Positions 2,343-54,000 of a stretch of 64,000 bases of DNA are shown piece by piece. Numbering within the stretch: the stretch's first letter is position 1; each line of letters begins with the position of its first letter. This DNA is from Ophelia neglecta (Eukaryota). The notes beneath the pieces were generated by a model. The model was not told the DNA's origin and made no database searches. It was given only the letters and a program-made list of their open reading frames with translations. The stretch covers positions 81,220,001-81,284,000 of the forward strand of contig OZ260663.1 of the NCBI GenBank assembly GCA_965285935.1, read 5' to 3'. Made by a program: the position numbers and the translations under genes.

Positions 2343-5300
2343 CTGTAAGAAAGCAGAAACAAGATAGGGGCTTAGTTCTCAAGTGAATAGATATCATTTG
2401 TTTCAGTCATTGATTTACATTTCTTGGTGTCAAATTGAAGAGCCCTTGAGAACGGTTTAAGGGTTTGCTCTCTCAGAGAATCAACAGTGTTCATGTATTA
2501 TGCATGAGCTACAGCAAAGACACAGGCCTGGCTTGACCTTTTTTTAATGTTTTGTGAGGACAGCATCAACAGTAATACGACGTACATCGTAACAGTCAAC
2601 AGACGGACACTGATTCCACCGTGGTACAGTGTGTGTGAATTGTCCAAGACAAAGCGATAAGAGGCGGCCTTATTGGATTAAACGCCGTGATTGATATGCA
2701 TGCCGGGGTAACTAAGCTCGACTGGGGATAAGCCGAGTTAAATCTGTTAGCTTGGCGCTTGTCTATACCCGCCGATGGCTTGTCACAGCGCAGCGGAAGC
2801 CTGTGATCTTTCTTTTTTCATTTGGCTGGCAAGTGAAGGGCTGGGAACGTCAGCTACTTTGAAGGAGTATGGCCGCCTCCACTGTTTGTCTCAGTCGCCC
2901 CTTAAAGCCCATTGAATATCGCAGCCATTTGCGATATATCTTGATCGTATTACCTGGATGTCATAATGCTGAGCGCTAACCGTATTTTTATTCAGTTTCC
3001 CATAGTAATACATCGCGGTGCTCATGTCAATCCGTTTCGGATTGCGCGCAGATCAATGAATGATACCCATGTTCAATAGATCGCTACATCAAGATGATTT
3101 AATCACATCTAATTGAGTTCGGTTATAACTGTTTTCTCTTCGCATGAATGTCAATGTATAGAGTTATGTAAAGAGTTCATAATGGCGATCGATAAAGCAA
3201 TCGGGCTCGCTTATTACCGGGTTCATGGGAAGCAAGTTCCCATAACGGACTCTCATACAATCTCTTCCTCAAAGCCTCGATTCTCTACAATGATATTCAT
3301 CGTTTAAAGCTCTTCAAATCGAGTAATTAGTTTGGTTGGGACAAAGCTTGTCACGGGCTTGGCTGTCGCATAATTGATTCAAGTGTCGGTCGGCCGCTTG
3401 TCAAGCCGTAAAACTTTCAATTTTGACTTTTCCCAATGATTTCATTGATCGATCGGCCTTTCAGAAGACGAAGAAACATCGCTAACATTTGTCAGGCGGG
3501 AAAATTTGCATTGAACATTTTCATTCTATCAAGGCTAGCCATTGGTTTTGCATTCTGAGTTAATTACAGGTCGATGGCTTACGAAAATAGTTTGGCTTTG
3601 AAAATTGGGAATGCTTTGTCGGGGATATTTGTCGCCATAAAAGTTAGTTGTGCACAATCACGCCGAAATGCACCGTGAAAATCTGCGTTAATGGATTCAC
3701 AAAATGCCATCGAGCTCTTTTTGTGCTGAATAATGTTATGGTTGTGCCGGGCATTGTCAAATTTGTTTATATTTTCTGAAATGCGGTAAAATGCAAATCG
3801 TGTTTCGTGAAGTGTTCATTGAAACGAGATGACATTTTATCAAAAGATTCAATAGTCACACACGCAAATAACAATGATGAACTCGTTTTTTACCAGAAGT
3901 GACATAATTCAGAAAGCGGACCGTGAGATGTTATCTCGCTGGTTATTAAAATCCAATTGATAAACTCCAACATTAAAGAACTCTAATATTTGTCCATCAC
4001 TTATATCTGTAAGTAGTTAGCAGTGATCTTCTGCGCGTTTCATGGCCTAGGCCTATATTTCTATTTCCTATGAGCTCTCGTTGCAAACATGGTATTTTAT
4101 GGGACTATGAATGTTATGATATATGAAAAATATCACTACCTGCAGAAAACAGTCTGAAATCAATAGCCTCGTGATCGTCGTCTGTCACACATATGTCCTC
4201 CTCCTGGTCCTGGTCGTCTTCTACGCCATTTTGAGATCCTCCAGACTTCCGGTGCGATGGACCGTCTTCGTCGCTGGACAGACAGCCCTCGTCATCGTCA
4301 TCGTCTGTGCCGCGTGTGGTCCACGTGACCTTATTGTCCTTCTTGAGGCGCCGCCTAGCGTTGGCGAACCACGTGCTCACTTGTGTTAAAGTCATCTTGG
4401 TTATGATCGCCAACATGATTTTCTCTCCCTTTGTGGGGTATGGGTTCTTTTTGTGTTCGTTTAACCAAGCTTTTAAGGTGTTCGTTCCTTCTCTGGTTGC
4501 ATTCTTTCTTCTCGCATTAGGATCCAACGCGAACCTAAAAAGTAGTAGTGTGAATTTTATGAAACCAATCAAAACAAAAAGAAAAGTGTCAAAATGTTTT
4601 TTTTTTTTAATAAAATTAACCCTATAATTAGGGAGATGGTCAATGGCCTCGTGATAAGAACCTCGTGATTATGTCTGTCAGCCAAAACTGTTTACATCCA
4701 AAAGGAAACTAATGCATCACTATTATTAAGTCTAATGAATTCGCTACCATTTACCACTTGGGAATTATCACGTTTAGTCGGAACAAATTACCATTCAATC
4801 ACTCTCAATTTACAGGCACACTCATATACTGTTTGTCGACATAACATCGTTTTTGTTTCAACTTAACACTTTCCTCTGAGAAAATACAGATATCAACAGC
4901 ACTTGTGGGAAAAAGTTCTGGGAATACTCACGCATTAGCATAAGGGTGAGCCATGATACCCTGCTCGTATGGGAAGTAGGGGGACTGGCGGAGCGCGGCC
5001 CAGAACTCGACGTTATCCTTGGGGTCAAAAGCACCACCCTGTAACAGAGAACGGTCAATCGTGAATATTCATAACCCTGCTTAGAATACTCCATTCTCAA
5101 AGAGAGCGAGGGTGTCAAGCGATGAGAACCAAACCATTATCCAGGGAACTCGTAATGACCAAGTAATGAATTAGTTGTTGAAAGGTCGAGTTTTCGTAAT
5201 CAGACGTGACTGCGGAGTGACTGCGACTAACTGTTTGTTTCGTTCTGGTGATGGGCGCTCTGTTTTGATTTCGCCACATTTTTCTGTTGATGTTCGGGTG

Positions 5301-14952: not shown

Positions 14953-15079
14953 ATGGACGACGATCCGCTATTCAATCTGGACACTGTCAGGGATTTTATC
15001 ATCTCTCGTGGTGGGAAAATCAGCAACCATCACCTAGTCACTCATTTCAAAACCTTCCTCAATGACCCAAGGAAGAAAG
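14953..15079 (+). CDS. sowah: sowah exon 1 (MDDDPLFNLDTVRDFIISRGGKISNHHLVTHFKTFLNDPRKK)
   Basis: aaacATGG start, donor G|gtgggt phase 1, SOWAH N-terminal domain motif. Confidence 0.9.
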
Positions 15080-18000
15080 GTGGGTTAAATATATGTAGCC
15101 GTCGAGAAATAACTAAATTCAGCCAGTAAATCTTGGTCGCGCCCAATTTATCGGTTTGTTGGTAGTTGAACTGATCGAGTCTTAATTTTAATATTTCCTT
15201 GAGCCATATAAGAAATTTGTATTGAGAAACCTGCAAAGCCTTCTTCCTTGTTTGCACCAACGCTATAATCATGCTTTTCTACTGTGTATTAAGTGAAATT
15301 TTAGTGGTTTATCAATGAAATACCTCATTATCGCCCATGATTTTGTCAACAAAGAAGCAGTGCACGTACATTGTTATGACTAATAACAGGAAACTGGTTA
15401 TCTTGAAATATACTGAATCCTTTCACATTAAATTATAAAACAGTACATTACATCACAGGTATACCATCTCATTTGATCCATAGCTGTCATAAAGGTGCTT
15501 CCAACTATATATCATTTCATGTAAAAGTGTATTCCTGTTCTCTCCTGCATTTATTTTGTAAGAACTGAACTGTCAAATTAGCCATAGGTACACCAAGGCT
15601 GAAATCTCTGACTTAACTGGATATGTGGAAACAAAATAAAAAAGTCATAGTAGTTATTATGGCCAGACGGCCTGTGCCCTTTATCTTCTGCTCACTGTCT
15701 TCTTACCATTGTCCACACATTTATGGAACATATAGGCGAAAGTACGCTATTAATGTGCCCTATATATCGTATACAGTACCTTGCATACGAGGGTTGGCTA
15801 GTGATGGATACCAGTATTCGATATACTTATTGTACTGGGCCAGCGAGGTATATTGTGATACGATATATTTATAAATGCTGTTTATTGGCATTTCTTACTC
15901 ATACATACTACACCCTTGTGGTAAATCTGGGTTAGAATCCCGATAGCATCAAACCAAAGACGTAAAGATAGGAACTGATAATTCCCCTGCCAGGCGCCCG
16001 GGTTTTCACAATTGATGCGGCATAGAAAGTGACTAATATGGAAAGAGTCAAGTACTGCCGTTCAAGTACTATGGTACATAGTAGATTGTTGAACATATCC
16101 GATATGTCTATATGGACAATATGTTTTATTAATATATCATGTCTTTCGCAAAACGTAGGTGTTGTATCTAAGGCTACATGATATCCATCAATACTGTTGA
16201 CTTACTTTTTGATTAGCTTGGGCCAAGTTGACCAGTGCCAGTTGGTATCCTGGAAAATGGAAATATTTACTAAATTATGCCATATTTAAATGAGGTCAAA
16301 ACAATCATTTTTTGTTTTCTCCAATCTTGTTAAAACAAGGCAACAATTGTGGTAATTTTGCTAAGAATGTTTAGGGATGTATGGTAAATAGTCCGAAAGA
16401 ATACCTCTTCACAAAATTCCAGTTATTTCATCAATAGAAACTTATTGATGCATAGGTAAATTGATTGCCATGTTCCTCTTTTCAGACCGGATGTATGTCG
16501 GTATCAGAGCTAGGACTCTGACCCTGTATCAAAACCAGGAGTCCATTCATCATCTTTAGCTCTGCCATGATATCGATTTATGATCGGTTATTTCATAGGA
16601 ATTTAATCATTAATCTTTTCACTCAATGCCATGTTTTGCTTCTTATCTTTAACTAGTAAAAACTTGCACCAATTGCCCATTTGTCTCCCATAAAAAAGGT
16701 GTATGCTGAAGCAAGATATACTTGTAAGGAGACTAAAACAAAGTAACCCGAGACAAACTGTTTGCAGTCAAATAAAGTTGAATATTTCTTGCATGTAAAC
16801 ATGATTGTATAGCTGTTCATTGTCCTGTGGGTCATATTTATAGATTCTCATAAATGACAAAAGGACTTTTTAGGTTTACGTGGTGTGCTTTGATGGAAAG
16901 ATCTATTATTGGCCTGACCCAATTGATTATTAATATGACAGCCTTGAAAAACTGAATTTTGACACCCACTTTTTTCAAAGAAAGAATGGGCTGATATGTA
17001 TTAGGGTCTGTCCTCTGCTGCTGATAAGGCCACAGTGAATATATATTTGGTACATCATGTACATATGTTTTATTAACTTTAATTACTTTAAATTTTGACT
17101 GCATAAACAATTACAGTTATGCAAGTCTTAAGCTAGCACTGCCTTGATAAATGATGGGCCAATCAATTGCAACAAGTGTCTGCTTCAAACATTGAAGATG
17201 TAGAAAACTCTCATCTTAACATGACAGCTATTACTCATTGAAACATAGAAATAGCAACATGTGTACCATTGCTAAAATACCTGTAGACTCAATTTTTTTA
17301 AATTCAATTTTTTTTTCAGATACCAATAGGCAGAAGTTTAAGACATATGTGAACACTCTGTCCACTGTGAAACTAGACACGGTATGTTACTATTAATATG
17401 TTTATTAAATGGATTCATTTCTACGTATAACTTTAAGACTTACATTGCCAAGCCATTGATCAAAGTTTACACTTTTCCAGCTGAAGAAGCAGATTTTTAC
17501 CCAACTGGAAATTTATATATTATGTTAGTGGTCCTATTGATATGTTGAAATGTCAAAAATTTCCAAAATATTTCTTTTAAGATAATTATATAATCATCTA
17601 TCTTCATTCAGAGTGGTGAAAAATTGTTAGTTCTGAAGAAAAAATACAGAGGGGATGCTCCGTGTGATGGCAGCACCCCCAAGAAACAGAAACACAAGGA
17701 GAAGCTGGAGGTGAAAAGGCAGAAAGTCAAAGATGACTCAGCCTGGATGGCCGAACCCCCAGGCCCTGATGAGCCTGCTGCTAGTAGTACCAGGAAGCAG
17801 GAGGCCGATGCTGGATTACTGGAGAGCTTTCTGGCAGCCACCGCAGCTTTCTCGGGGGAAATAGCCGATGAGCCTGACATGTCGGGTAGTCAACCCAGCC
17901 AGGAGGTCCTGGATGAAAATCTGCTGTCTATGGATGACTCTGAACCTCCTAGAGGCATCGAGATAGTCTCCGGTTCTGCTGATTTTAGATCAGAAGCTGT

Positions 18001-21000
18001 TGATAGTGTTTTGAATATCGATAATCCGTCTGCTTACGAGGCCTCCTCCACTGATACCCTAGAGAAAGTAGTACCTGATTCTCCGCCTGAGCTAGAACAA
18101 GTAGAGACTGCCGATATATCCCCCATCAGTGTAGAACAGCCGATGGATTCCTTTACGGATGATGTCCCCGAGGCTATACCAGAACCAGTCAAGGTGATAG
18201 CCCCAGAACCAGAGGAACCAGTTATACCTAAGCCGGTGTTCCTGGTAGATAGCCATGTAGAAGAACCTATGGAAGCTGAGGAGGCAGAGGTTCTCAGTCC
18301 AGTTGCTTCAGAACCGTCAGTAGATGCAGTAGATAATGATGTCACCCCTACCCTACCGGTGAGTTCTTTTTATTTTTATTGCACCTCACCTTTTTTGAAG
18401 AAAGATGTTTTGAAATATGAATTTGACCTCCCCAGAAATGCATTTTAGGAGTATACTTTGCATTTCAAATGATTTCCTATGTTTTCAGATTTTTTTTAGC
18501 TGATTTTCCATCAACACTTGCTTCAGGTTCAAAACGTATTGCCAGCCTTGAGATTCCATACATTGTGGGCCAATGGTGTTATGTAGTTTGATCTCTACCT
18601 GTCTTTTCATTGTCCAACCAAAAAAAAAGAAATGGAAACAATGGATTTTTTTTGCACACAACAGATGAATTCCACTATTTTCTTGAAGAATCAGTGTCCA
18701 CCTAACTTTTCTTGACCAGAATATTTCAGCCCATTTTACTCCAATATTTGTTTGACCTACTTTTAAACTAAGTAATTGGTAAGCTGGCTCATGGCTGGAG
18801 CAAGGGAAAAAATGTGGTTACAAGGGTGGCTGCACTATAATACATTGTCATTTTATAGTCTAAATACTTTACAAATAATAAATGTACTATAACTTAGTGG
18901 AAAAGGAACTATCATCTCCATTGGACTGATTGTGATATTCTAATATGGAGTCAGTACTTTAAATTTTCAATGGATAGTTTACAGAGAAAGAAATTTAAAT
19001 TGTTTGCAAAACAGTTAGACTAAGTGTGAAAAGTTGGCTGGACAAAAGTTTGGCCATCAAAGTGAGTGTACATACACTTAGAGTATATCTAGCTGACTAT
19101 ATCTAGCTGACTGTGTCCTAGTCTATACATGATAAAAATAACATTGAACATTTCAGGCACATACCTTAATAAACATTAAATTTCAGGTTTGTCCGGGGAG
19201 GTTCTCGCGCTCTGTATCGGTAATATTCAAAAACAGATTCGTTTGACCCACCTATTGATAATGCTGACATTGGTGTTGCATGTCGTTCATTTTAAAACAA
19301 GTCATTATTATATCCAGTTTATAATGCAATGTACTAGTGGTTTTTAGTGCGGTTCAATATTGAGATGTTGGCATGCAAAAAAACCCCTCCCACTTTCACC
19401 TATAAATTATTTTTTAGGATTGAACCATTCCGAGACTCCAAGGTATTTAGGCTCACAGAAGGACATTTCTGATACTTTTAAGGAACAATCTAGTCTGACC
19501 CTGACTCTAGAGCTCTCATTTCAAAGATCAAGGCCAAATGGCCCTAGTTGTCTAAACTAGGTCATATTTGTTTCCCTGTTATGTTCTAAATGTTTGCAGG
19601 GGTTTTTCTGTGTGAGACTGATGCCGAGACATACATGTTATGCCGATCCTTTTTCCTTGGTGTGGGGCATGTGTCTTTTGAAGTGTTTGCCGAGTCTTCA
19701 GCAGTTTGCATGGTGGTTTTGACACTGACACAGTCACATAGAAATGAAAAAACAAAAGTTCTATCCACCACTTTATTCCCAGCAACAGACTGCGCATTGG
19801 AATAGAAAGAAAACAAATATTGATAGTCAAAGGATTGATCTGAAGGTGTCATGGCTGGGAAGCCAACATCCTTATTAGCCGTCTTAATTAATCTTGCCAA
19901 TTATGTAGCTGGATTGCTGGTCACAGAAAATATCACAACATTTTTAACTTATCCTCTGCATTATAGTTTAGATTTCGTTCCACCATCACAAATTATGAAT
20001 GCTGTGGTCAAGTTAACAGAAGACATACATGTACTTCCATGAAGCAAACAGTTAACTGATTTGGAAAATTTGATTTAAGATAGGTTGCCAACCTAGAACC
20101 TATGCAACTTCCATTACACCAATAGGGAGGGAGGGGAGGGAGGGAGGGAGGGGAGAGAGGGACGGAGGTGTTTGTGGCGATCTGCAAAAGACAGGAACAT
20201 TTGTGTTGCTGCTTTTATTGTCAATTCAGGAAATTCCATGATTACTGTGTTTTCCCAAAAAGTGGAAGGGTAAGACTTAGGTGGAGGCAGGGGAGGGGGG
20301 GGGGGGTATTGACAATGGGGCATTGGGAATTGTTTGCTGAAAGACCACAATGTCACTAAATAATAGTAGAAGGTTTGTTATCCTTTTTCATGCATGAAAA
20401 AATGCTTGAGTAAGAACAAATTCTGAGCTATTCTGTTTTTGAATAACAAAAATAATAATGATGCACCTACTGGTTACCATGACAACTACACATCACTTGC
20501 CAAAATTACCTGCATACATTTCCTCATAGCTTGAAGGTCAATCATCATGTACAGTTGTCCCTGTGATGCAGGGACCCTCCGATGAAGAGACTCCCTCTGA
20601 GCGAAGGACATTTTTCAATTCCCATGACCTACCTTTTCTATGTTAATGTTCCTCTGATGAAGGGACACCTGCTATGTAGAGACACTTTTACGTGCATTTA
20701 GATGTGTCCCTTCATCGCAGGGACCACTCTACAAATATATAGTCTTCAATACTAGTAGTGTTGGAATTTAGAATAACTGTGGGTTACTCTTTGTAAGAGT
20801 AGTTCAAATTCAAACTGCCAGCTTAAGAACACATTTAATAATTTTTCAGGGAATTTCTGTCTGATATGGCTAAGCTGGTGTCTTGTATCACTGTAAACTT
20901 TTGTAGGAACAGTTTATTTAATTTTTTCCAGGTTCCATCAGGTGCCAAACAGGTTGTACCAGTGAGTGTGAAGGACAGGGCTAAACATCTTAACAAAATA

Positions 21001-24000
21001 ACATCTGAATCAGATCTGTCGGCTTCAATGATAGGAAAAAAGGTATTGAATGCTTAAAATATCAGGGAATGTCATGCACAGTAGTTGTAAAGGTGAAATT
21101 GTCTGTTTATAGTTGGCTGAACTGTTGTATATATGTTGTAAAAAATGTCAAAACTATAGAATTTATTATCATAAGGCTTGGCTTGTTAACCAGGCCAGAG
21201 GACCTTATATTATGTTTATTACTAACACAAGCCAAATAACTGATTAGGTCAGGATAAGAGAATATGTTGGACATTTAATACTACATTTAATGAAGTACAG
21301 GGTGGCATTACAGTTTATCCTGAAAACTTTTGCAATGCAAATAAAATAATATAGGTTGGAATAATAGTATAGAGGGGACGTGCTTAACCATTTTTAACTG
21401 AGTCTTTCTCAGTGCTCATTCACTACCAAGAACTGGGTCTTTCTCATTGCTCCTTCACTACCAAGGACTGAGACTTTCTCAATGCTTTTCTCAAAGCTTG
21501 TTCACTACCAATCTGACATTATACTTAAAAAGAAAGCTTTCTTAATATTCCACATCCAATATTACAGTTCTTCATTTGTATGTTTTTGAACACCAATGCA
21601 ATATTGAACAATGCAATGTTAACTTAACCAATTTATAAATGTACATATCTGTGTATATATTGTTTTTAATGCTTTAAATCTAATTTTGTTTCAAAAATAG
21701 CAAAGTAAATATTATTAATTTTTATATAATTGCCATAAATTATCAATTAAGACATGTATCATGATTGTTGATAATTTCCATAACTGTCTTTTGATCCTAA
21801 CTACTTAACATACATGTATGGCATGACTTTAAAATTAAGTTAATTCATATATATTAAGTATTTATTAACAATTGTACTAATATAACTATAAAATAAAGCA
21901 AACCCCAGGTAATAATCAAATTTTGCAGCACCAGGCAAGCCTGCCTTAAACAATTAACTTCTTTTTAACCCAAGACATATATGTTGATTTTAATAAAAGT
22001 ACTGATGATGGCAGGCTTACCTCACGAAAATTTGATTACTACCTTTTGGTTGTCTTATTTTATATTTCTTAATTTGTAAATAGCCAGAACAATTTTGATC
22101 CAATGGGTGTTAGTTAATTAACTAATTACTAATCAGGAAGAGCTTGAGGAGCCTGAGATGGAGATTGAGACAGGCCAGTTGATTTACCCAGTAGTATACC
22201 AGAGAACGTATCCTACGAGCCACAGCCACGAGGAGGTCTGCGCTGTAGGCTCTCTGTCTACTATCAATGAGGAAGTCATTGTCCATGAAAAGCCCCATGT
22301 ACAAAAATATGAACCCTCTGTGTTAGGCCACCATCAATTAACAGTCAAGGTAATCAGACAGGTTCCTCTGTAAGATGAGTGCAGAGCTTTATGCTAAGGT
22401 GCTTGAAAGTTACCCCAAGGCTGTGGAACTTTAATTTTACAGCAAGTGCATGCAAAACCTATCTTTTTGAATACATTATAGGAAATATAAGGGTGCATGG
22501 AATATATTCTTCACAGAGTATGATAAGACTTGGTTATAGTATGAGTCTTATTCTTGATAATTTTAGGGCAGCACTTTTCCAATTGAACAATCCCATGGAA
22601 TTCTAGTTCCCAGTTTTCTTGTTAAGGTAGCCGGGCTGCATCCTAACTTCATATTTTTCTAGTCATCAAAGGGGATTTCTCTTTAAGGGCACCTCTCTCT
22701 CCGATTATTTCCGAGACACCACCCCCAATGGCTCTCTGGCCTTTAAGTGCACCGCAGAGTCTTGACTCCTACGTTCACCGCCGCCACTGCCAACTCGCTA
22801 TTGACACTAGATTCATCACGTGGGGCAACACAAGTAAATTTGGTGGCAGTAATATCTCATCTCGCCAAAGCCATTATGACATCTAAATGCCTACAAAATC
22901 TCCACCTGCAGCCGTACTGATACGACAAGCTTGAACAAATCAATTACGACGGCCCCTATCACCCGTCTGCCCTAACAATACCACCCCACAATGGCAGGCC
23001 AGAGGAGTTGGGGGATTAGGCCAATAATTGTGCTTTGTGGATAATATTCCAAGCATGAGTGTCTGCAAGGTTGCTGATTTGTGCAGTCGGGTTGTTTTGC
23101 TGATTCAGAACATTTACCGAGTTGCTCAAGTAAAAATAGACGTAAGTGGTAGAACCGCCATTATGACGGAATGGTACAAAGTTAAATTCCTTGCATGTAT
23201 TATGTAATAATACAGAAGAACTGATGAAATGCCAATATAGTTAGAATAATACCTGCCAATCACATGTTTAGAACATAAAAAGGAATCATGACTGCCTGCT
23301 TAATGTACAATACAATGTACATTATTTAAAAAAAGAATCAATCATGCTTACACTGTTCCACTTTAACTTACTACTGGGCTTTGAAAAAATCTGTCATTCA
23401 CATATTTACAGTTAAAAAAACAACTCGGAAACCTGTCGATCCATTATTCTGTATAATAAGGAAAGTCAATCATGTTTTCATTCAAAGCATTTATGTTTCA
23501 ATTCAAAATTCTAGTTATTTATAGAGTTATGCTTTTTGAATGAGGCCATATTTGGAAGAGGAACCATTCTGGCTGGCGCTTGATACCATGTCATCAGGAG
23601 AGATATTAAAAAGCCAATCATCATCTAATGAAGGTCGCATTATGGGCCCGAGTGACTCGAGAAATGCTCATAAAGGTCCACAAAGAGGCCTCAGCGGTAA
23701 TGCCGCGAATCATGAGTCCATCATAAGAAAGATTAATGTATTAGCCCCGCCGAGGGGTAATGTCTAGTAATTGCTGCTACTGTATTACACTGTGTCACTC
23801 TTTGTCTGATAAGTTAATTTCCAGTCCTGACACGCTGGTCGGGGTGGCCATACCGATAAATATTTTCACTATCAAAAGGGCAAAAAAAGCCAGTTTATTA
23901 CTCTGGCTGAAAAGGATCTGACAATAAATTGGATATTGCAGCTAGATTTCTGTTAGTTCGCCCGGGGAGAAATATCTCTATATTTCATATTTTTGCTATT

Positions 24001-27000
24001 TTTATTTGCCCTTGATGTTTTCTCTTTTTGATTGATTCTGTCTCCCTTAAACTGCTATAAGGTCATAAGTATGATGGGAATAGGAGGAAGGAAAGTGTAT
24101 TTTGAATTCATCAACACTTCATGTACATCTATGTTTATTACATAAATTTGGAGACCAGTAAAAGTAATATTGTATTGTACATTTCTTGTTCATAAAATAT
24201 CAACATGAAAAAGTTATGATCATTGTTTGTACATAAAAAATACCACTGTAAAAAAGTACATAAAAATGATATACATTAGTGTTTAGTGTGAGCTTCGAGT
24301 TCTTCTGACTAACCCATTAACTAACCCATTAACTTCCTTTACAATTTACAAGCTTATTGTCTCGTAACCCATTGTTTATTGTTGTTTATTATTTAAAGGT
24401 ATGTTTTTTTATTTTTTCTACATTTTTTCAGCCATCACCCAGTAAAGACGACGATGACAATCATTCTCAATCCAGCGTGGCTATCACTGTAAGTGAATAC
24501 TACTAGGCAGCCGCATGTAGCGAAGAAATAAATTGAATATATATTAGTGGCTGGAATTTGAGATAAGGATATGCCGATCTACTTGTGCAATTATATTTTA
24601 TTCATAACTAGCTACATTGCTGAATAGTCTGTTTATATGAAATGTTCATTGCAGAAATCAATTTATCTTTTTTTTCTAGTATTTATTCTCAAAGTGTCAC
24701 TGCCTTTTATATATTAATATTTCGTTTAACTTTCTTCCAGCTGGATGAGACAGAACGTCAATGGATGCTGATCTCGGCTGCAGCTGACTACCAACCAATG
24801 GCTAAACTCCTGCTAACTCACCCGCACCTCATCAAAAGAAAGGTGTGATAATATGTTATAAAAAGCTATATATCGTAGACTCTCCACCACCTGCTCTATT
24901 CTGCACACATGTAGTATTCATTTAGTGACAAATTCACATTCCAAATCACCATTTTCGGGTATATATGTTTGCTAGCAAGTCTTTAAAATGCTCATTATCC
25001 TTATGAAACTCACCAGTTGCGTTGATGGTGTTGCCAGATCTTTGAAAGAAATAAAATTGCAATTCTGACCACTTTGAATGACATCAACAAGCTTTAGAGG
25101 GATATGTGGTCAACCTTCCATTGACATTGTCAGGTACAAATTGAATCTTTTTCACGGGGTGATAAGTGATTTCGACTAACGTTTAAGTCTTCTCACCTGC
25201 TGTCATTGTAGTACACCACAAATATGTGTGTAGCGGAAAATGTGGTCCCCATTATTAGATTTGGTAGCTATGGCCGTGTCGCTAGGTGTGGAGGATCTTT
25301 GTTTGGGGGGGGGACCCTTGGTGGTGTAAAATTAGTATATTTATGTCAGAGATTAGCTTACAATTGCCATAGATCATTGCAAGAGGTGTATTTGCATGTT
25401 TAGTACCTATGACATCCCTCGGAAGTCATTTTAGGTGGCTATAAACCAGATATCATTGGACACCTTAAGCTACGCCAGTCAATGCACCAACACGATTGGG
25501 GCATAATTCCCCATTGGTCGTCTGCCTTTGCCTGATCTAAGTTTAATTTATTTCCTCTCATAATTCAGCCATTTCAATCTTTCAGCATTATGGCAATTTT
25601 GTTTGACTTTTGAAATGGATACAGCCGTTTGTGTTGTGTTCAATAAGCGTGCTTGCTTTTCGCCAGAAACCTAATATGACTTTTATTCTCTTCGCCCCTT
25701 TCATGTGCCGCTGTACTCTTTGTGCCGATGTGCTGTCACATTCAACAGGATTTCATGTCGGTAAGTCGTACTCACCAAATCAATTGTAGCCATTTCATTT
25801 AGAGGTGTGAACTGATACAAGAGAATGACTCGAAGCCATGATGAGGATTTTGTGATTCACCCAAGTCACTTTGTGTTTGCTCGCTCGGCTAAGCTGCCCT
25901 ATTTATGCACGCACAGGCTACTGTTGGCAACACGAACTTTTAAATCAAAATTTAATTTACTATAGATAGCTTACAGCCTGTGGTCATGACTTCAAGCGGA
26001 TAAGGACATGTATGCCTTTAATAAATTATTTATGCTTTCTATGACTCGGAATTTGAAGTCATTGTAGGAGAGTTTTTCACTGAGGGAAACTATCAGACTA
26101 GCGTAGCCAAAGGCAGAGATTTAGTGTGTGAACTGTGCATGATAGCCAAGCAAAACCAATCATTGATTGATTAGGGACAATTAATAAAGACCGCTAATGA
26201 AGGATATTATTGACAAGGCTTAATTATCATTTGTTAACCAGAGAAGCATTATAGAAAGCACTTCTCCCAGGGACAGGTTAATTTTGTTTCACTTTAAAAG
26301 CTTAATAGAGTGTTTAATTCAGGCAGTAATTTGAGCTGTCAAGAGGCAGGCCTGCTATTTTCAGCTGCATAATAAGAGCTCAATTATGCATTTAACCAAG
26401 CTGCAGGCATTGCAAGCATTCCTCCCAGTTGTCTCATTCACCCTTTAACCAGAACAATGGCTAGGGCTTTTTGTTTGCTTATAATCATTGACCATTCCAA
26501 TGAACAATTTAACTACAAATACACACGCAAAGATATCTGCTTTGATTATGGCCAGTAATGTGATTTGACCATTGTTCTAATTGTTTTCTGTTTTCTTTCC
26601 TTGCCCCTCCTACTGTGCCGTTGTCCTGCCTGGGATTTGATGGCTTCCCTGCCCTACCATCGTCTGACCTGCCTCAATGAAGGGGGTAAGTCATAGCTCT
26701 GCTTAATTACCTCTAAGTGCTTAATTATAACTTATCCCTCAGAAGCATTGCCGGAGATTTGAATCGCTATCAATCATCGGCCGCCATTGTTTTGCCGCTG
26801 TGCCCTGTCAGTGATTTCATATCTGGTGAAAGGGGAGAAAATAATCACATAATTTCATGCTCGGAGCATGTTACCGAGCCGAGCCTGCAGACGGGAAAGT
26901 GGCGGGCTGAAATGTTAGCCAAGACGAGCATTGTCGCCCTGACACAGCTTATGTTTTTGATCAATGTAATTAAGGGGCGATTTTGTTGTGTGCCTTTTAA

Positions 27001-30000
27001 GAAGCACTCTCTTACAGATTGATTTTCAGCTGACGCGTCAATATTGGTGTGCTAATATTCTCTTTAATGGATGTAGAAATCAATGATACTTCCACCTCCC
27101 CACCTCATTTACATGTTCTAGGATTTGTCTGGCATAATTTTGACGGACTATAGGCTAGTGAATGTTGGTCAGTCTTTGTGCCGAGTACGGTATGATAATG
27201 AAAGAAACTGTTTCTATTCTCGATGTCTACTTTAACAAAGTGGGTGGCGTTCGAAAAGCAAAAGTGTCGCCGCGGTGGCCACAGACTTTACAATCGCCCG
27301 GCCGAAATCAATAATGTTTGAAAGCCTAGTTGTAAACATGTGTATTCAAATATGAAATACTGCTAGGAATAATATTCAATTAACTGCCTCACAACGGCAA
27401 TGGAGACTGATTACATTGGGAATCTGTGCTCTCCAAACAATACACGTGTCAGACCACGTCCGGAACACAACAATTTGGAGTCGATCCACCCCGGCCGTTT
27501 GCTTATTGATTGCCGAGTAATATCGCCGATCACTTTTCACGGGGAAAATACAATAATTTAGAGGCTTAGAGTAATATGCGCTCATCAATATGCATACAGT
27601 GTGTGCCTTTTATCATCGCAGATTGCATGCAGTGTCGGGGCGATTTGGACTATAACAGGATTACTCGGTAGATTTGGCCCGATATATTGTGCTAACACTT
27701 TGTGCTCTAGAAGCCGATGCCTGTCAGACTTGGTCAGAATACTACCTAGAGCTGTTCTGGCCTTGTTAAGCTTGGCTAAACCCCTCCCCAATGATATTTG
27801 AGAAATAAAACGTTGGTGTCAGAGGTGTCACTACCCAAGTGAGTTGACTGGATGAGTGGGGAGTTAAGATCCCCGATCTCCACTGCCACTAAGTCCACAT
27901 TATGATATATTGGGTCGCCCGTTAGGGCATTCTGAGGGTGACAGATCGCGCCCACAGATATGAAGGGGGATCTGGAGATTTGACAATAACCAATAAACCC
28001 TCCATATTGCTCAGCCACTGGAATGACAATCAGCTATCTAATTGATATCCATTCACTGCCCACCTGACCTCCGTCTGACAATACACGACAGACACCAGCT
28101 CAATCTGGGACTGATCAAACACATAACTCACTGACAGACACCAACTCGATCTTACACAAATCAACCAAACACCATCCTCCTTGAAGAAATCAAAATATCA
28201 CGTCTGCTGCTCTTTGTCTCAAAAGCCTATTAAATTCCTTTTGTTTGATTGAATATGTATTTTTGTAGTTATAAGTAGACCAATGGTATTTTAATAATGA
28301 AAAGATATGTTTGACAATAATATTTTGCATGAATATGTAGTTTCTTGATATATAAATGTTAATAGCTACTCTCATTGTGTCTATTACTTATTTCCCACCA
28401 TGTTGCTGCCTCTTGTGCCTGTGCTGTGATGTGCTGCCACCTGGTAACCTAACTGTGCATAACTTCTGTGGCCATTCACTCAACCTACAGTTTGTAAGTA
28501 TCTATCTCATTATTTGTCTAACAGCTAACAGTAGACTGGTAGTTGCAAATGGAAATATGTAATATTCCACACCAATATAATACTATGAGTTGGTATTTGG
28601 TTTTTATTCAGCATAGTAACATCTTATCATTAATAAAAAAAGCTCTTTCATGTCAGTTTTATATGAAGATAAGGTTTGAAAATCTAAACATGTCATATGA
28701 AGTTCTTAATGGTGGTATCGTTGTTGACATGTATATAAATCATGTAGAAGTAAGTATGAAGTGTATCTCCAGATGTTTCACACATCTTCACTGGTGTGTT
28801 GGACTGGAGGACAGGATTTTGACAAGGGTGGGTTTCTTTACATCACAGGAAGGGTATGAGATGGGTACCCCCTCCCTGAGGAGAGTCTGGTAGCCTAAGA
28901 CCCCCTCCTGGGACAGGGCACACATCCCTCTCCCTGGGGAAACCCGAGAGGCGGGAGGAATTTATAGAAAGAAAAAAGGGGCCCCTGACCTTCCTGTGTC
29001 TCTCTAAATTTGTCCTGACCCCCCTGCCCCCTCCTAAATGTGCCAGTATCAATATCCAAACCTTCAAGTGGAGGTTTAACTTGTTGGTGAACTTGTTAGA
29101 TAGCAGATGCCTTGTGTATGTCAGCACTAGCGTTTTATCCAAACGTAGATTGTCATGTTTGTGTCTAGGCATTCTGTCATCGCCATCTCTTAGCCCGCTC
29201 TCTTACACGGAATTACAAAATCTTCTCCGGATTTGATTTCCCAACAAATAGCTGACATTCTGCCCTCCACCGTCTCAAGTCAGCAAAACTGGCAACAATG
29301 GCAAAAGTGTCCGACAACAGCCCGGTGTATTGGCCCATCTTTTATCGCCATTGGAGTAAGGGCACTATCAGCGTGGATGTAGCAGTATATTCCCCCAGGG
29401 AGAGCCTTATCAGTTTTTCGATTTGTATTGTATAAGAAGTGCGGTGATCTTGAGAGAAAGGTGGTGTTTGGGGACATGAAGCAGACTGGATGATGTACAT
29501 GTAAGAAGCTGTTTAATGGCGGGGTAGTGGTGGTTGCTTGTAGTTTTGGGCTGTTGACATTGGTCTTCATGTCTGTCAGCTCCGCCGAGACACACTGTTT
29601 GTGTTTATACAGACAGTGTTTATCTAGTGGGTAATTAGAATAAACCCGCCAAGCCTCCAGTTTGAGATGGAGTTTGAGATGGGAGTCCTCGAGCCTGCCT
29701 CAAGCCTGCCTGGGCCGTGTGGCTGATATTACCCTCTTCCCCTAAGTGTTTTCCAACCCTAGGTGTTGGTTTATTTGGTGAAGACTTTACAGGTTTTCTT
29801 GCCATGTTTACTCGCCCTGTTTTATGGCTCCATCGGCAGTTTAGTTATCAGGCGGTTGGCACTAAAATGGAGAGCCTCCAACCTGCCGATTGCTAGTACC
29901 TGTTGAGTGAAATATGTGAGAAAACCTGAATGTTAATTGTAGAATGTGGCAGAGGAGTAAGATTAAACAAGCCAACCAAGAAAAAAATGAATTAAGATAA

Positions 30001-45000: not shown

Positions 45001-48000
45001 CTAACCATGTTTCTAGCCATCTCCTGGATTGTATCTGGCAGATGGAGAGGAGAATGTGTGCTATGCATTCTGCATTTAATACCTTTGTCACATTGAATTC
45101 CCTTCATTATATCAAATCTCTTATAACATTTTGTTACTAGTATACTTTTAGAGGCTTGGGTCACATAAAAATTGTTATTTCACTACTTTAACAAGTATGG
45201 GCATATTTTGTGAAATATCTGTAGATATTAATTTATAATGTTAATATGAATTCTTGATGAAAATGAATGAAGTTTTATTAGGTAAATGATGTCTTTTATT
45301 GATGACAGGCCTGTATATATCTTTGACTTTCTTTCCTCCCTTGATGTAGTTCTTGTCCCATCTCTGTTGTAGAACTTTAGTGTTGGAAATTCACACCGGG
45401 TGGTTACAGTCCCGGCAATGTTAGGGAAAAATTCCACCGCTATATCCTGTTGATCTCATTCAACTAATATGATGTTAGCATTGAGCAAGCTGTCAAGCCG
45501 GGGTGTGCCTGTATATCTTAGATGTTAATTTAATTTGCAGAACTTAAAGACTTGCGTAGCCCTTTGACACCTTGATTAACTTCTTAATTCAGCTGGGTCT
45601 CGGTGCCAATCAGCTCGGCTTGTCAGAAAAAAACCTCGGCGGCAGCGACATTGATCAAGATATGAGGAACTCGGCGTGGCGTTGTAAAACACCGCCGCCG
45701 AATTCATTTGGTATTCATGATAGCCGTGCACAATCATCCATTTGAAAAGATGATGACTTAGTATGGCTTAGTTATGATTGACATTCTAATAAAAGGCATG
45801 TTGAAGCTGACTTGTGAAATTGTGGTTAATCCCGGTATTACAAGAGAGGGGTTCTTGGTACCCAGCGCAGGTTTGCCCAAATCCGTCTGGGGTTATTCAT
45901 GTTAATACCCATCTAACTCTTGGAGATGAAATTAATCAAATATTGGTTCTAATATGTCAATGTGTCAAATTGCATTATATAAGCCTGTTTGGGATTTCAT
46001 GTCAGCTGCGTTTTTAGTTGGGCCGGCGGTTTTTTCCTACTGTTTAATTTCTTTGAATTACGGTGGAATGGAGTCTCGGGTTAGTTGTAAAAAGTATCTT
46101 GATTTGAAAGTGACGGGTCTTAATCCAAACTGATCAAATTATTTCCAGCATTGATTATAGTTTAATTATCTGATATGAATGATTTCTTCTATTTCAGTTG
46201 GTCAATGAATCTTCCTCATTGTGCCACCAAGTATTGTTCTGACATTTAATGTAATCTCTCGGGCTGCTCCATTCAGAGTTTCTTCTGAGCCCCGCCTTAC
46301 AAACATCCGTTTTTAGAAGCATTGTGTACTGCTGGCTGCCAGTTAATATACCCCTTTAGTGGGATTAAATGGCGTCGGCTGTGGGGCCATTGAGAGAGAA
46401 AAAAGGCAGACATGTACACACCTATGGCTATGAAAGCAGCACATTTTTTCTCCATTTTTGTTTTGTACCCCTTCTCTGATGTCCCTGTTCAAATGCCTTG
46501 AATTTGAAAGGAATAGTAGAAAAGATAAAATGAAAATAATTTTTGTTTGTTTAAGGTTACAGTTTGGGATATGATAAAGTGATACTGCTGGTTAACATAA
46601 TTATATTTATTTTTTCAGACTGCACTCCACTGGGCAGCTAAGCATGGTAAACTGGAAGTGGTCAAACTGCTGTGTGGAACAACGGGGGCCGGAGTTAACG
46701 TGAGATCGGTGAGTAGTATGGGGACCAATGCCACTCCCTGGTCTGTTTTGTACCTCAGGTTTTATATGAACACAAATGTGCTGAAGTAGAATGATTCTCA
46801 GTGGTGCTGCCCGCTTTAACTGTTGTGATCTGTCAGTTGAATAAACCACACATATGAAATGAGACTGTGTCATTTGAAGCCGACCTCCTCCCCATCTCTG
46901 GCTAAAGAGTGCAAGCCATGAGGAGGGTCAACTTCAAGGGTCACAGAGTCAGATTATGACTCGTGGCCTCCTCAGAGGGCAGTCCCACTGATAAAAGTTC
47001 TAACCTATATTAAATGAAGACTCCAAACACGAGAAAAAGGTGACAGAAAACAGGGGGGCGATTCTTGGGTCTAGTAATTAGTTGTACTACGACTACTACG
47101 TACTATATCCATGGGGTTTTCTGTCCAATACCAAAGTGCAGATTGTTATATAACAATAGCACATTTACTATTGCTTTTGCAACATTTTAGACAAAACTAT
47201 TTTAACTCTTTGTAGAACCAGGTGTATTGAAGTTCTGTTGTTAAAGAATTGGTTGTAGGTTGGTTGTAAACAGTTTAATAGGTTGTTAATTAATAAGTTA
47301 TGATCTACCTAATAGTTATACAAGTTATTATTGACACAGTTATTATTATTAATGTTTTAGAAGTACTGTTTATATGACTGTTGGCTTGTAATAGGAGGTA
47401 CATCTTATATATGAAAGAATGAAAAATAAACACTGTTCTTCAGATTAGAAATTAACAATTAAATACTAGATGTATGGATATCATAATTATACATGTGCAT
47501 AATGGTATTCTATATTTTGTAAATATATTGAAATCTCAAGAATGGTTTATTCTCAAACTATATCCAGTAAAAAGGAAATACTAGAGTAAGTTATCAATGA
47601 GGAACCCTAATTATGTGTCTCTAGTCTTGTCCAGCTGACGGTGGATTAATCATAATCATATCAAATGTCCCAGAATTCATTACAAGCTCCAACACTTTTA
47701 AACAAAACAATTTGGTCAGGATAATAGTTGACCCATATTGGTAATTTTGTTGTGCATATCAATGCACAATAAATTATTCCTTGATTAAGATGCATATGGG
47801 CTGTTGTCAGTTTATGGGGCTGAATCACACAGGGATGAACACCAGTTTATCACAATAATTATCTTAAGGAGTTTGCAATCATGTAAGTGGACACATAGGA
47901 CAAATAAATCTAAAATGGACGCCCCGGACAGTTGACGGTGGAGATGAGCGTGGCGTTGCCTCCCACCATTGATCAAATCCATAAACATGTTCAGTCTGGG

Positions 48001-51000
48001 CTTCTAAAGGCTTATGATGTGCGGTGCACTCAGTCGAGAGGTCTACAATCATCAAAGCTACTCGGACAAGCTCAGATGCACATTCTACCAAAAGGAGATA
48101 GCGATTTCATTCCCCTTTTTGTGTCAGTACACAGCGAGTAAGCGGCATCAATAACATAATTATGTTGAGAAATCAGCTCGGAACGATGAAGTTTATTAAA
48201 TTCATGCTCGAGCAGGGGAAGTGTGGTCACGCGTTAACATTCATTTTGAGCTTCGGCCCCAATCGCTGCGCACTGCACTGCATATGGAAATTAAAAAGGA
48301 AGAGAGCCTCTTGCCGGCAATGGGAGAGGACCAAGCGTGAAATATGGAATGTCCGTCTCTTGTGAAGTGTGTCACATGGTGTGTACCCCAGTCAAATCCA
48401 GCGCATCCAAACTTAAAGATTAGACATTTTTCATTAAGGCTGATATGCTGGCGAAAGAATACAGAGTGACGTGGGCTGGTGAATTGGTTGTATGAATTGC
48501 GCAGCTATTACTAATCTTTCTTGTTTGGTTTCCAATGCGATCTGTCTTTGTTGCCTTTTTATCCACCCGGAACAAGCTTTCGGCTCAATGTCCGCAGGAT
48601 CGCACCAGTTTTTGTCACTGCGGCAAACTTTTGATGAGGTTCACTAGTCTGTGAGCTTTGCGTCTGCTAGCAAGATTAATGTAGATATCATATCTAATGT
48701 GTCCAGTCGTAATGGAGGGTGACTTACTGGAATTGACTTAATGGCTAAAAAACAGATATTGGGTAGGAAGCACGGTGGCCTATGAAATGGGTTTTTGCCT
48801 GTATGATCTAAGGGTGTATCATTACTCGGTTAAGGTTGAGCTCGCTTCATTCCCGATACAAGCCGGCTGGCTGTAATAGCCACTCGTAGTAGGCTTCTCA
48901 ATCAGTCTCACATGGGCACTCGATAGCCAAGAGCGGCAATCCCAGCCCTGCTTGTCAAAGATATTGAAAACCCTTGTCGAAATTGTAGGCATTGTCCTCT
49001 CTGCATTGCTGCCTTGTTAAATTGATTACTGGAGGAGACTTAGAAACAGCTTCGGCAATGTGTCTTGTTTTTGTGCAAGCTGAAAGTTACACTTGCCTAA
49101 ACATGTCTTTCGATCATTTACATTCGCAAATAGGGGTTCTTTTAGGTCTGCGACACAAGAACGATGTGTTTCATTTGGAAAAGTATCCATAAAACCAGTG
49201 TATGCCATTTTATCGTCAGCCAGGTGAATTCTAAATGCCCGGCTGGGAATAAAACCAGGATTTGGCATTAGGCAAAGAGCCGTGGAATGGAATAAAATGG
49301 AGATTTGGCATTAGGTAAAAGGCGGCCGATTGCATTGGGGGAGCAGAAGGTCTGCCCAGAATAATCATATAGTTAAGTCTGGCTTTGTATCTGCGAATCA
49401 GCACGTGGCCCCACTGAGGGACATAAGACAATTTGTGTCCTGACAATTGCACATCTCTGGGCCAGGCTCCAGTGACCAGAGTAATCCCATCAGTTATCAA
49501 CTCTCAAATACACTGCTCCTTCAATGCGAGCGAGTAATGAGTCGCAGCGATTCTGCTATAATCTAGCCTATTAAATTCCTCTAAGCAGGATGTCGGACAG
49601 AGAATTACATTGTCCGATGAAGAAAACTGCGGAAGTTATGTCTCCCAACTGCCATCAGTACATGGGACTGCAATTGGCAAGATAATATTCAAAGAATTAA
49701 CAAATGTTTAAGTGGCTTGGTATTGCCGATAGTTGGGCCCTGAATGGCGTCTTAATCTGAGGGGCCCAGATGCGCAGCGCTTGTGGCCTTTCACGTGTCA
49801 TTGATCATGTAGGGCTAATGGCTGTTACGGCCTCACCTTGAGCCACGGCTGAGGAAATGAACAGCCATGTTCGCTCGGCACAAACAAAGTCCCCATCACA
49901 TGTTCTGAGCCGCTATCAAAGTGGCCTCGACATTTGTCAGACGTTGAAAATAGTCCGGAAATGGAGCTTGGCTCCTACCACGCTAAAACCTGTCATTGTT
50001 GGTCTCCGCTGGAGAAAGTCTGCCACATCTCGGTAACTCAAGCAAATTTGTACAAAATGGCACAAAAAAAGTTATCGTTAGCCTACAGTGGATGTGTCTA
50101 GAGCAATCCACAAGGTTTATGATGTCTTAAAACAAAGAAAAAGCACCTCCATGAAATTACATGCCAGCCTCCCATTCTGATATTGTGGTTAATTCCCCAG
50201 TCCCTGGCAATGTCGAGATCGCAGATACCCAATCATGTAAATTACTGTCAGTTTTACCTCAGCACTATTCATTACTGTTATGTAAATTAAATTTGGATGT
50301 GTTTATAGGGCAGTTTATTTAGCAGTACAAATTTACATATCTATGAGGAGAAACAGTCGCGCGATGGGATTAAGTTCACTTAAGTTGCCAGCATGTTTAG
50401 TAAACTGATGTCTTCATAATTGTCAGGTGGCGTTTAAGATTGTCACTTTAAATGTGTTACATCAGAACGTGTCAGTCGAGCTGTCAACCCTGGCATTGCT
50501 CCATGACTCCAGCGACAAGTGATATGCAAAACCAGTCATTAACATCCCGCTGAATCAGGGATAAAATCACAATATGGTCCATCGGTGGGTGGACCTTGGC
50601 GGCCCCGGGGAAATTCCTTTGTGCCCAGATTGTCTCAGATATATTCATGATGAAAAATGGCTTGAAAAGTGAGCCGGTGTATTACACCATCATAACACAA
50701 GGGCCTCGGCAGATGGGAGTTTGTTAGGCTTGTTGTTGACAAATCTGACAAGGTAATGGTGAAACTAACCATGTACCTCTCGCCGAATGTCTCCAAAAAT
50801 CTTGTTTTGTCTGCGTGTTGGGGGAGGGGGGAAGATGCTACAGCTGATAAATAAAGCTAGGCATCTTCATAACAAAAGCATTTTCCATAGATAACAAGAG
50901 ATAGTCAGGGTTTTATTTTTGGAGGGCCACTAAGTGTATACAATTCAAATAAGAATATTGGCACTATTGTTCATTTAACACTGGTATTAGAGGGTCGTAA

Positions 51001-54000
51001 TCCACTTTTTATTTGCCCGGTTTGGCCATTTTCACGGAGGCAGCCTGGGTATTGAGACTCTAATAGGATATTCAACACACACTTGCCTGGCTCAGCGGGA
51101 CGAAATACAATGCTGAACGGTCAAGTTGATTATTCTACTTGATTTCACACAAATGAAAATATTTTGAGAGGCATTATTTGGCAGCAGTGGGTGAGAGGGC
51201 AGTTGGGTATTATCCTGGCCTACAATGGCTAAGGGTTTAATTGGAATCGTTTGGTGGAGTGGGGGACCCTGCTGGGAACCTGCCTCTCCTAATCATGCCA
51301 CCATCAGAATTAGCCAAACACTGTGTTGGTGCTCACTGGGCGGTGAACTGTTTGCAGATTTCTGAACCCTGGCTTGTTAGATTGCTTATTTAAGTAAATT
51401 GACTGTTGTAAACAATAGTGTATCCAGTAGAATCCACAACTTATGTCTGTCAGTGTAGCTACATGTATGTAAACATAGCAGAAATACTATTCAAGTCAAG
51501 GTCTAGACTGTTTCAATACCCTGTGTTTAGTTCTATTAAATTCTAATAAATATATATAATGATTTTTTTTTTTTTTCATGTTCTGCTGATATGTCTGGTT
51601 GTGCCTGACAGCATGTGAGTATTTAACCAGTAAACAGTTCATAAAGGTTTGCGAGCCAAGTGGAAATAGAGGAAAGGGGATGACTGCTTGGAGTTATACT
51701 GTTTAATACACATGTATAATATGTGCCTTGTTGATAAAGAATTTAATACTTTTATAATTACATAAATACTTATCATTTATATCTCTAATCTGACACTATA
51801 TATTATTTTTGATAGATATTATTTTCATATCAAAGTCAATAAAATATGTGTTTTTTTCCACTTATTCGGCAAGTGGCACTTATTTGACCGAAGTTACACC
51901 ATCAAAGACTATAACCTGCAGATGTAATTTAGCCAATCCATTTCATGCTATTGATTTTATATTACGCCATTTTGCACCAGTGCCGCTAGACGGGTAAACT
52001 CAATTGAACTACTATCTCAAAATCATGGTTTCATCCAAAAACCACTATTGTGAATCGAATCTCCTGATCTTTTTCTGAGAGCTTCAATTCAGCATTTTTC
52101 CGTTATGAGAATCATGAGGTCAGTGAGAAGAGAAGATATTGACATTTCTCGCCGTTGATTTCCAGGCAAATCTGCGAGTTTCTGTCCTAAATCCTATCAG
52201 TTCCAGTTGTCTGGCTTTCAAGTCTCCTGGAAGCATTCATCAGTGTTTTGTATTTGTAAATCAGGTTGGAAACCGGTGTCTTTCTCATAAAACCTCATCT
52301 CCTTCATGCTCAACAGAGATTGGGCACCGGGGCAGAATGTGCGATAGTCGCAACTAAAAATTACATGAAACTGCAATTATTACTGGTTGTAAACATTCCA
52401 CTCATAGAATGTGCTGTCTTGTATCTTTTTCATATTGTCGCCCATTGTGCTGGTTGCTGAAATGGATGGTTGCCTTAGGGGGTAAGTGAAATTTCATCTA
52501 TAGCTCCGTTGTCACGTTCCTAATGATATTATTGGCCGATAGAAATGACAGATCATCACAGCCAATTATTACAGATTTCTCATGCATATGAAACGGTGAT
52601 ACCCCGGGCCCCGGCCACATCGACCAGCCATCACCGAGGGATAAAAAAAGATATTGAATGTCACTCACTGTCGGGGGAGGTTGGGGCCAGCGATAATGTA
52701 AAGGGCTTGGTCACAGGGCACTCTACATTCACCCATTCTGGCAGCCATTGTCTGCCCTTGGGCATCTGGGGCGGAGACTGGGCTCGGGTCGTGGACTCCA
52801 CGGCCTCCGAGGAAGCCCAGGAAATGAAGGCTCTGTGCCCAACACCTTCGCTCGAGTCGCGGGCAAAATTCGTTTCCTGTAGAACATGTGTAGGGAACGG
52901 AGCAATTTGCATCTCAACAAATGAAACTCGGACTCATCAGCAATAATCATGATTTAATGAGAGCTCTGCTGGCAAGTCCAAGATGAATGGGACATTACTG
53001 CTCTGGAGGAGGTGTGAAAATCTTGCCATTTCACTGCAGAATATTTCCATTAATTACCCAACTGTTCTGGTAGGGGGAGCCATACATGTCTTAACAAGGC
53101 TGCGTAAATCAAGGTGAGAAGCGGAGTGTGAGTCACCTAGACCCAGGCCCCTTCACTTCCACCGGCATTCTCTCCCCGGTTTGATTCATAATGCCATTCC
53201 TCCACAAGAGCTCTCCAGACCTCAAGCCCCCCACCTTTGATGCCGGATTGGTTATTAATTAAAATTAAAATCTCCAATGCTTTGATGAAAAGCCTCTGCC
53301 GCTAATGGGATTGAAAACAGTCGATAAATAGATGTTGATTGTTTTGGAGATATTGGTGTGGGTGGCCAGTGTGATGTTAATGGCCCCGTTTAACATAGTA
53401 GTAGACTTGGATGGTAATCACGATGATCTCTGGATAAACAGAACCAGGGTGGTCCGTCTGCAATTCAATAAGCTCTAATACACTTGATCAAATCTCATTT
53501 CATTTATTATTTATTAATTATAACCGCACAGAAGCTGTTGTACCGTAATGCTTCTAATAATGAACAGAAGCTGTTGTACCGTAATGCATCTAATGATTGC
53601 ACCATGTATAAATTCATACACTTTAGATTCATATCATTTTAATTATTGTTTTACCTATATTAATTTAACCCATCTAGTTATCCAAGTAACAAACATTTCT
53701 AATCGACCAGTAATAATTAATTGTTATTAACCTTAGTAGGTAGGTAATAATTAGTGCTATGACTGAGCACTGTCTGGGTGAAGGCAGGATACCCCATTAC
53801 AGTCAAGTCTATTTTTATTTGAAGATAAAACATGTTATTATAGTATAGTGAAGAGATTAATATAAAAGAATAACTCAAGACATTGGGAACAGAAATCACC
53901 AATTTCCAATATTTGTCTGCTAATAGGATTTGATAGAATAAAGAGTAATGTTCAGTTGCCTGCAATTTAGTTGCTTGCCATGATTTCTAGCTGAAACTTT

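Follow-up and report, generated by a model that had tools for sequence, protein, structure and literature searches.

Three microexons in a Sowah gene

We analysed 64,000 nucleotides (nt) of the Ophelia neglecta genome (GenBank assembly GCA_965285935.1, contig OZ260663.1, positions 81,220,001 to 81,284,000 of the forward strand; hereafter the window), within which three microexons of 12, 3 and 3 nt lie in a gene that, judged by its predicted product and its neighbours, is the Irx-flanked ortholog of Sowah (CG10632). The chain and the exons on either side of it are listed below in window coordinates.

24741..24842, + strand: upstream exon coding the capping helices of the ankyrin domain; a 102-nt exon also present in two orthologous loci of other genomes, L020 and L021
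25749..25760, + strand: 12-nt microexon coding D-F-M-S; CAG acceptor, GTAAGT donor, phase 0
26683..26685, + strand: 3-nt microexon GGG (Gly); AAG acceptor, GTAAGT donor
28491..28493, + strand: 3-nt microexon TTT (Phe); CAG acceptor, GTAAGT donor
46619..46708, + strand: downstream exon, an ankyrin repeat from T-A-L-H-W (Pfam Ank, E 5.5e-08); 90-nt counterpart at 17465-17554 of L021

An earlier note on this DNA had described three consecutive microexons of 12+3+3 nt, separated by introns of 922 and 1805 nt and followed by one of about 18.1 kb, which spell a D-x-x-x-G-x hairpin before T-A-L-H. Coordinates, flanks and introns all check, the intron lengths being 906 nt ahead of the 12-nt exon and then 922, 1805 and 18,125 nt. 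When ordered sets of up to four pieces of the form AG|1-18 nt|GTRAG were enumerated between 24843 and 46618, exactly one set gave D-x-x-x-G-[FYML] in 18 nt, namely the 12+3+3 chain; donors were held to GTRAG, and any-GT donors would give 78-98 pieces per length. This single strict-donor solution, together with the homologous proteins described below, bears out the hairpin. Genome-wide, no second copy of 25500-28600 was found.

On the + strand AG-NNN-GTAAGT occurs three times against 0.68 expected, and at least three occurrences arose in 2 of 100 Markov simulations, a result that is weak alone; the bare AG-NNN-GTRAG motif, with nine occurrences per strand in the window, is likewise weak evidence. 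Such abundance, and the many database models without the loop, could be taken to mean that the pieces are chance motifs or zero-length recursive sites and that the mRNA joins 24842 to 46619 directly. We consider this extremely improbable, because the solution is unique in the right order and frame, the AG-free zones are extreme, the same Phe exon stands in two other genomes, and the fly exons carry annotation and RNA-seq support. Nor are these zero-length AG|GT sites, since AG and GT are separated by 3 or 12 nt whose coded residues are present in homologous proteins. On sequence grounds, the 12+3+3 chain is confirmed as more than a chance match.

Further downstream, a second chain codes S-H-G-G ahead of Y-T-P-L-H. 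Its AG-free zones (the stretch before an acceptor AG that holds no other AG) are given with its exons.

51612..51614, + strand: 3-nt microexon CAT (His); 79-nt AG-free zone
52479..52481, + strand: 3-nt microexon GGG (Gly); 69-nt AG-free zone
62447..62519, + strand: next ankyrin exon, starting G-Y-T-P-L-H (Pfam Ank, E 6.1e-08)

Alternative pieces for the second chain at 48135 (CGA), 48648 and 51188 were rejected on their AG-free zones of 5, 7 and 1 nt, respectively, and swapping in CGA 48135 also lowered the profile score.

The loop in homologous proteins

The homolog set comprised 71 proteins (carrying PF25877, a SOWAH name, or high coverage plus identity), taken from the best 120 of 774 matches and from a second search; since the protein query contained the loop, the matches lean towards full loops. 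In 52 other, non-Sowah ankyrin proteins used as controls, Asp precedes the Gly of G-x-T-[PA]-L-H at -3 in 121 of 249 motifs, at -4 in 5 and at neither position in 123, which agrees with the hairpin exceeding the usual D-x-x-G-x-T by one residue. D-x-x-x-G-x is kept in 19/19 proteins from short contigs (transcript-like contigs whose transcript origin is only presumed), 20/20 named vertebrate proteins and 3/3 brachiopod isoforms, in 7/18 arthropod models and in 1/11 mollusc models. The exact D-F-M-S-G-F occurs in P0045, P0115 and P0127, and S-H-G-G of the second chain in 13/19 short-contig homologs. Gly and Asp are invariant in an alignment of 31 sequences, which were chosen for a full linker; the loop Asp has exceptions, as the 12-nt exon of the fly codes C-P-A-T. 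In mollusc and some arthropod annotations (NCBI models P0040, P0047, P0049, P0051, P0052, P0056, P0063, P0079 and others), the microexon residues are absent or the gap is filled with other sequence.

A Sowah profile scored the model at 399 bits with all pieces, 386 without Gly, 387 without Phe, 376 without the 12-nt exon and 366 with none, a gain that is partly circular because the profile was built from full-linker homologs. The AlphaFold model of the Lingula protein P0008 forms a block with a predicted local distance difference test (pLDDT) of 96-98 over residues 51-150, both loops included; it matches ankyrin-repeat structures, and DSSP assigns no strands in these residues.

Exon layout in other genomes and in the fly

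A metagenome scan yielded 17 candidate stretches and three loci, two of which (L020 and L021) are true orthologs; L022 was rejected as a Sowah locus. Both orthologs show the upstream exon, then a 15-nt exon coding N-F-M-N-G, the first four codons of which correspond to the 12-nt exon, and then AG|TTT|GTAAGT, the Phe exon lying as CAG|TTT|GTAAGT at 3648-3650 of L020 and 10456-10458 of L021. In L021 the 90-nt T-P-L-H-W exon follows, bounded exactly like 46619..46708. The Phe exon is thus shared as a separate exon, and in both loci Gly is fixed as part of the fused 15-nt one. P0006, encoded on an ENA contig, runs directly from the upstream exon into D-F-M-T-G, followed by V-S, which is what a translated donor site would give; it hints at a third state, with the 12-nt and Gly pieces perhaps fused to the upstream exon.

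Between the window introns around the chain and L020 or L021 no DNA similarity was found. L020 3752-3951 and L021 10542-10741, just downstream of the Phe microexon, form a 200-base non-coding stretch that is 92.5% identical and a candidate Irx enhancer; it has no match in the window or the next 60 kb.

In Drosophila melanogaster, FlyBase gives sowah (FBgn0036302) four short exons (12 nt; 3 nt, GGC; 3 nt, TAT; 6 nt), which stand in the reliable list of microexons (PMC8042270, Table S4). All four (ME119, ME3, ME2 and ME19) are among the 128 coding microexons listed there as constitutively spliced from RNA-seq (PMC8042270, Table S5), constitutive being defined as a percent-spliced-in (PSI) value of 1. 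As in O. neglecta, exons of 12, 3 (Gly) and 3 nt (aromatic) follow one another before the T-A-L-H-W exon, and a second short piece ending in Gly comes after; the placement before T-A-L-H-W was deduced from exon order, codons and gaps in a 2009 alignment. The fly differs in that its 12-nt exon codes C-P-A-T rather than D-F-M-S, Tyr replaces Phe, the introns, as calculated from the table, measure 3079 and 1081 nt instead of 922 and 1805 nt, and the second chain is one 6-nt exon where two 3-nt exons stand here.

Displaced splice signals

The acceptors of the first chain are preceded by the following zones.

25667..25746, + strand: 80-nt AG-free zone of the 12-nt exon; CTAAT with its A at -75 (motif match only), best pyrimidine tract at -68 to -54
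26556..26680, + strand: 125-nt AG-free zone of the Gly exon; CTAAT with its A at -103, directly before a U-rich tract at -99 to -85
28366..28488, + strand: 123-nt AG-free zone of the Phe exon; best pyrimidine tract at -111 to -97, CTAAC with its A at -39

Zones of 80, 125 and 123 nt are reached by only 18, 2 and 4, respectively, of the 2793 AGs in the gene span, so that the Gly and Phe acceptors end the second and joint-third longest AG-free stretches. AG-free zones measure 69-125 nt at each of the five microexons and 17-44 nt at all eight ordinary acceptors (Mann-Whitney p = 0.0008). The best 15-nt pyrimidine tract lies 35-111 nt upstream of the microexons, compared with -19 to -4 at the ordinary exons; for ordinary exon 5, the zone was taken from a start one base late and the tract row two bases late. 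T content beside the microexon AG is low (0.25-0.44), and GTAAGT donors follow four of the five microexons and one of the eight ordinary exons. At three of the five microexons a CTAAT closely precedes the distal tract (A at -75, -103 and -66), and the Gly exon has further branch-point-like matches at -115, -43 and -16. RNA structure prediction for seven acceptor regions gave z from -0.59 to +1.22 and no shared fold.

The orthologous Phe exons share the layout (L020, zone of 94 nt and tract at -73; L021, zone of 105 nt and tract at -66). The fused 15-nt exons of L020 and L021, with zones of 33 and 14 nt, adjacent tracts and short introns ahead, have the ordinary layout.

The earlier note had singled out the Gly exon, with its uncommon AAG acceptor, as the likeliest to be skipped. 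The proposal is unsupported: the fly Gly exon ME3 is listed as constitutive, L020 and L021 carry the Gly inside the 15-nt exon, and a skip of Gly alone occurs in none of the 71 homologs; the AAG, for its part, has no nearby competitor, because its AG-free zone is the longest of the five microexons.

Host gene and neighbourhood

The spliced frame of a 14-exon Sowah model (13 exons in the window and one just beyond) is open over 491 aa to the last placed exon. Its remaining annotated parts, and the facing gene, are these.

14953-15079, 17320-17381, 17612-18358, 20932-21042 and 24432-24488 (span 14953..24488), + strand: 5' exons of Sowah, the first coding the N-terminal winged-helix region
4348..4467, - strand: homeobox sequence of an Iroquois-type TALE homeobox gene, head to head with Sowah

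Exon 1 matches P0001, a PF25877 protein, at 80%, whereas a Pfam search with the 42 aa of exon 1 alone gave no match; model residues 7-79 match the N-termini of named SOWAH-like proteins, and the model is 58% identical to Lingula SOWAH (P0008) over 172 aa. The gene thus combines a PF25877 region, a short SOWAH-like ankyrin domain and linkage to Iroquois. Three homeoboxes of putative Irx type, judged by the known Irx homeodomain sequence, lie on this contig (G000:C5) at 81,224,348, 81,353,495 and 81,387,653, the latter two about 69 and 104 kb past the window end. Sowah between Irx genes and with long introns is the arrangement of the Irx-Sowah genomic regulatory block (PMC2674049, PMC12311624, PMC5803294). 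Capitella has the same order, Irx(-), Sowah(+), Irx(-), and a similar N-terminus, and differs in its third Irx homeobox, which is forward there and on the - strand here (PMC2674049, Additional files 4 and 5).

An open frame flanked by AG and GT lies between exons 4 and 5 (22137-22349; 213 nt, 71 aa, acidic, phase 0) and is a possible extra or alternative exon for which no homolog was found. A very high-copy repeat lies at about 20550-20730, where summed contig depth exceeds 30,000 compared with about 30 nearby. Past the window end, at about 81,292,146-81,292,187 of the contig, a 42-base stretch matches L021 576-617, upstream of the ankyrin exons, at 86% and may be a repeat or a conserved element.

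Three sequencing runs behave as genomic DNA, the introns being evenly covered. An apparent joint between 26740 and 28373 was rejected as a deletion allele, as it consisted of 28- and 18-base matches inside an unrelated contig. An exon 3 query for the full-length protein of the species itself found none among 3005 candidates, which is weak evidence.

Constitutive or regulated inclusion

We consider it probable that the three pieces are constitutive coding exons of early-bilaterian heritage in the Irx-flanked Sowah gene, spelling the hairpin that leads into the first full ankyrin repeat and spliced from 5' to 3' through distal signals. The basis is the sequence anatomy, its conservation and the constitutive status that a published table gives the fly exons, from which we infer splicing in O. 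neglecta.

Several observations weigh against this reading. The loop is missing from 8 of the 11 mollusc NCBI models, several of which stop exactly at the upstream exon boundary (two more, without L-H-W, were left unclassed), and part or all of it from 11 of the 18 arthropod models. Upstream of the five microexons, UGC is modestly enriched, as it is at regulated neural microexons, with 14 occurrences in five 60-nt stretches (p = 0.0002 compared with random windows and 0.03 compared with AG-free ones). At the Phe exon and at the Gly exon of the second chain, the distal tract has no YTRAY match ahead of it. In the three DNA runs, which come from one study, variants are not depleted in the microexon cores (2/20 compared with 2.2 expected). 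Finally, SRRM4-dependent human microexons are spliced downstream intron first in 58% of cases and upstream first in 26% (PMC10250204). We read the loop-less mollusc and arthropod models as probable annotation misses; real skipping is the alternative. None of the 11 bilaterian models in the 2009 alignment has the residues of either loop, while the Nematostella model carries them (PMC2674049).

Alternatively, the pieces might be regulated cassettes, neural and of the type that depends on the enhancer of microexons (eMIC) domain of SRRM234, or under another UGC/YGCY-binding factor, with loop variants that differ by 1-6 residues. All pieces are in frame, the proximal tracts are weak, and the modest UGC enrichment would fit; the aromatic residue alone is absent from six hymenopteran RefSeq models (6/18 arthropod models), while all six positions are kept in five other hymenopterans. 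EMIC-dependent neural microexons resemble the Sowah exons in 3n length, in a long (here predicted) distance from branch point to acceptor and possibly in upstream UGC, and differ in being tissue-switched, the fly orthologs of the Sowah chain being constitutive (PMC10250204, PMC13174390, PMC12871342, PMC8797185). We regard regulated inclusion as improbable, on the listing of all four fly orthologs as constitutive (PMC8042270) and on several further points. In the fly eMIC table sowah has a single row, which is for another exon, of 46 nt, and ME119, ME3, ME2 and ME19 were not found there (PMC8797185, Table S2). The whole loop is present in 20/20 named vertebrate proteins, which come mostly from tetrapod or fish genes described, in the tetrapod case, as retrocopies (PMC5803294). 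No homolog skips Gly alone, and the L020 Phe exon has no UGC in the 60 nt upstream.

Order of intron removal

For constitutive exons of this kind, the branch point and pyrimidine tract would lie 35-110 nt upstream, inside the long AG-free zone, and U2 and U2AF65 would bind far upstream and stay clear of the U1 site because branch point and tract are displaced. The acceptor would be whichever AG comes first after the branch point, and a weak AAG would therefore be tolerable; the consensus GTAAGT donor would offset the poor exonic match to U1, which would rely on the intronic part of the donor. The short introns (906, 922 and 1805 nt) would be removed co-transcriptionally from 5' to 3', each step lengthening the growing exon; with this complete by the time transcription reaches the acceptor 18 kb away, little chance of skipping would be left.

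For the steric problem of a 3-nt exon, to which the earlier note had proposed ordered splicing as the answer, the distal branch point and tract are likely a second way round, beside ordered splicing. The 4-nt constitutive exon of human MPC1 has its main branch points mapped more than 60 nt upstream (PMC9929638), and vertebrate neural microexons have a long distance from branch point to acceptor (PMC12871342). The Sowah exons have the long AG-free zone and displaced tract of the MPC1 type, and share with MPC1 long introns, a consensus donor and, probably, constitutive inclusion of a tiny exon. MPC1 has a single frame-shifting exon with branch points mapped from lariats, whereas here three exons are in frame and the branch points are predicted (PMC9929638).

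With regard to the order, which we infer, removal from 5' to 3' is more likely than other orders because three introns of less than 2 kb precede the 18-kb one. Nascent RNA showed the upstream intron removed first, with a strong donor leading to constitutive inclusion (PMC13174390). The exons may also be real and constitutive, yet spliced downstream intron first or in no fixed order, with U1 at the donor defining the exon. That most short SRRM4-dependent microexons go downstream first (PMC10250204) speaks for this, as do the strong donors of the Sowah microexons and an MPC1 minigene in which the downstream intron was still removed after the acceptor had been destroyed (PMC9929638). Under such an order, the Phe exon would have to wait through 18 kb of transcription with three short introns unspliced, and the nascent-RNA data favour upstream-first removal (PMC13174390); we hold this order to be unlikely.

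Significance

The 12/3/3 layout is real, ancient and ordinary in kind, and not a new kind of system, because FlyBase already annotates it in the fly. Sowah microexons may reportedly have been described by Maeso et al. in 2012. Main-text searches of the literature found no paper on sowah microexons, which stand in the supplement of PMC8042270. What is newly added here is the displaced pyrimidine tract at all five microexons and the fused 15-nt state without displacement.

For gene models, the finding means a correction, as 6 + 2 ankyrin-loop residues are missing from most of the bilaterian Sowah annotations examined. Two consecutive, probably constitutive 3-nt exons offer a compact test case for how a pair of splice sites can both be used when three bases separate them, and the displaced tracts are defined targets for minigene mutation. 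Tentatively, and with somewhat more doubt than belief, we suggest that Sowah may hold a bilaterian-wide, codon-by-codon ratchet of splicing, in which consecutive constitutive single-codon exons are added from 5' to 3', each by way of a branch point and tract displaced by 35-110 nt, and the distal signal is lost once exons fuse, as in the 15-nt exon of L020 and L021. If this were true, the lineages with split and fused exons would form a natural series on how 3-nt exons are handled without a tissue-specific helper.

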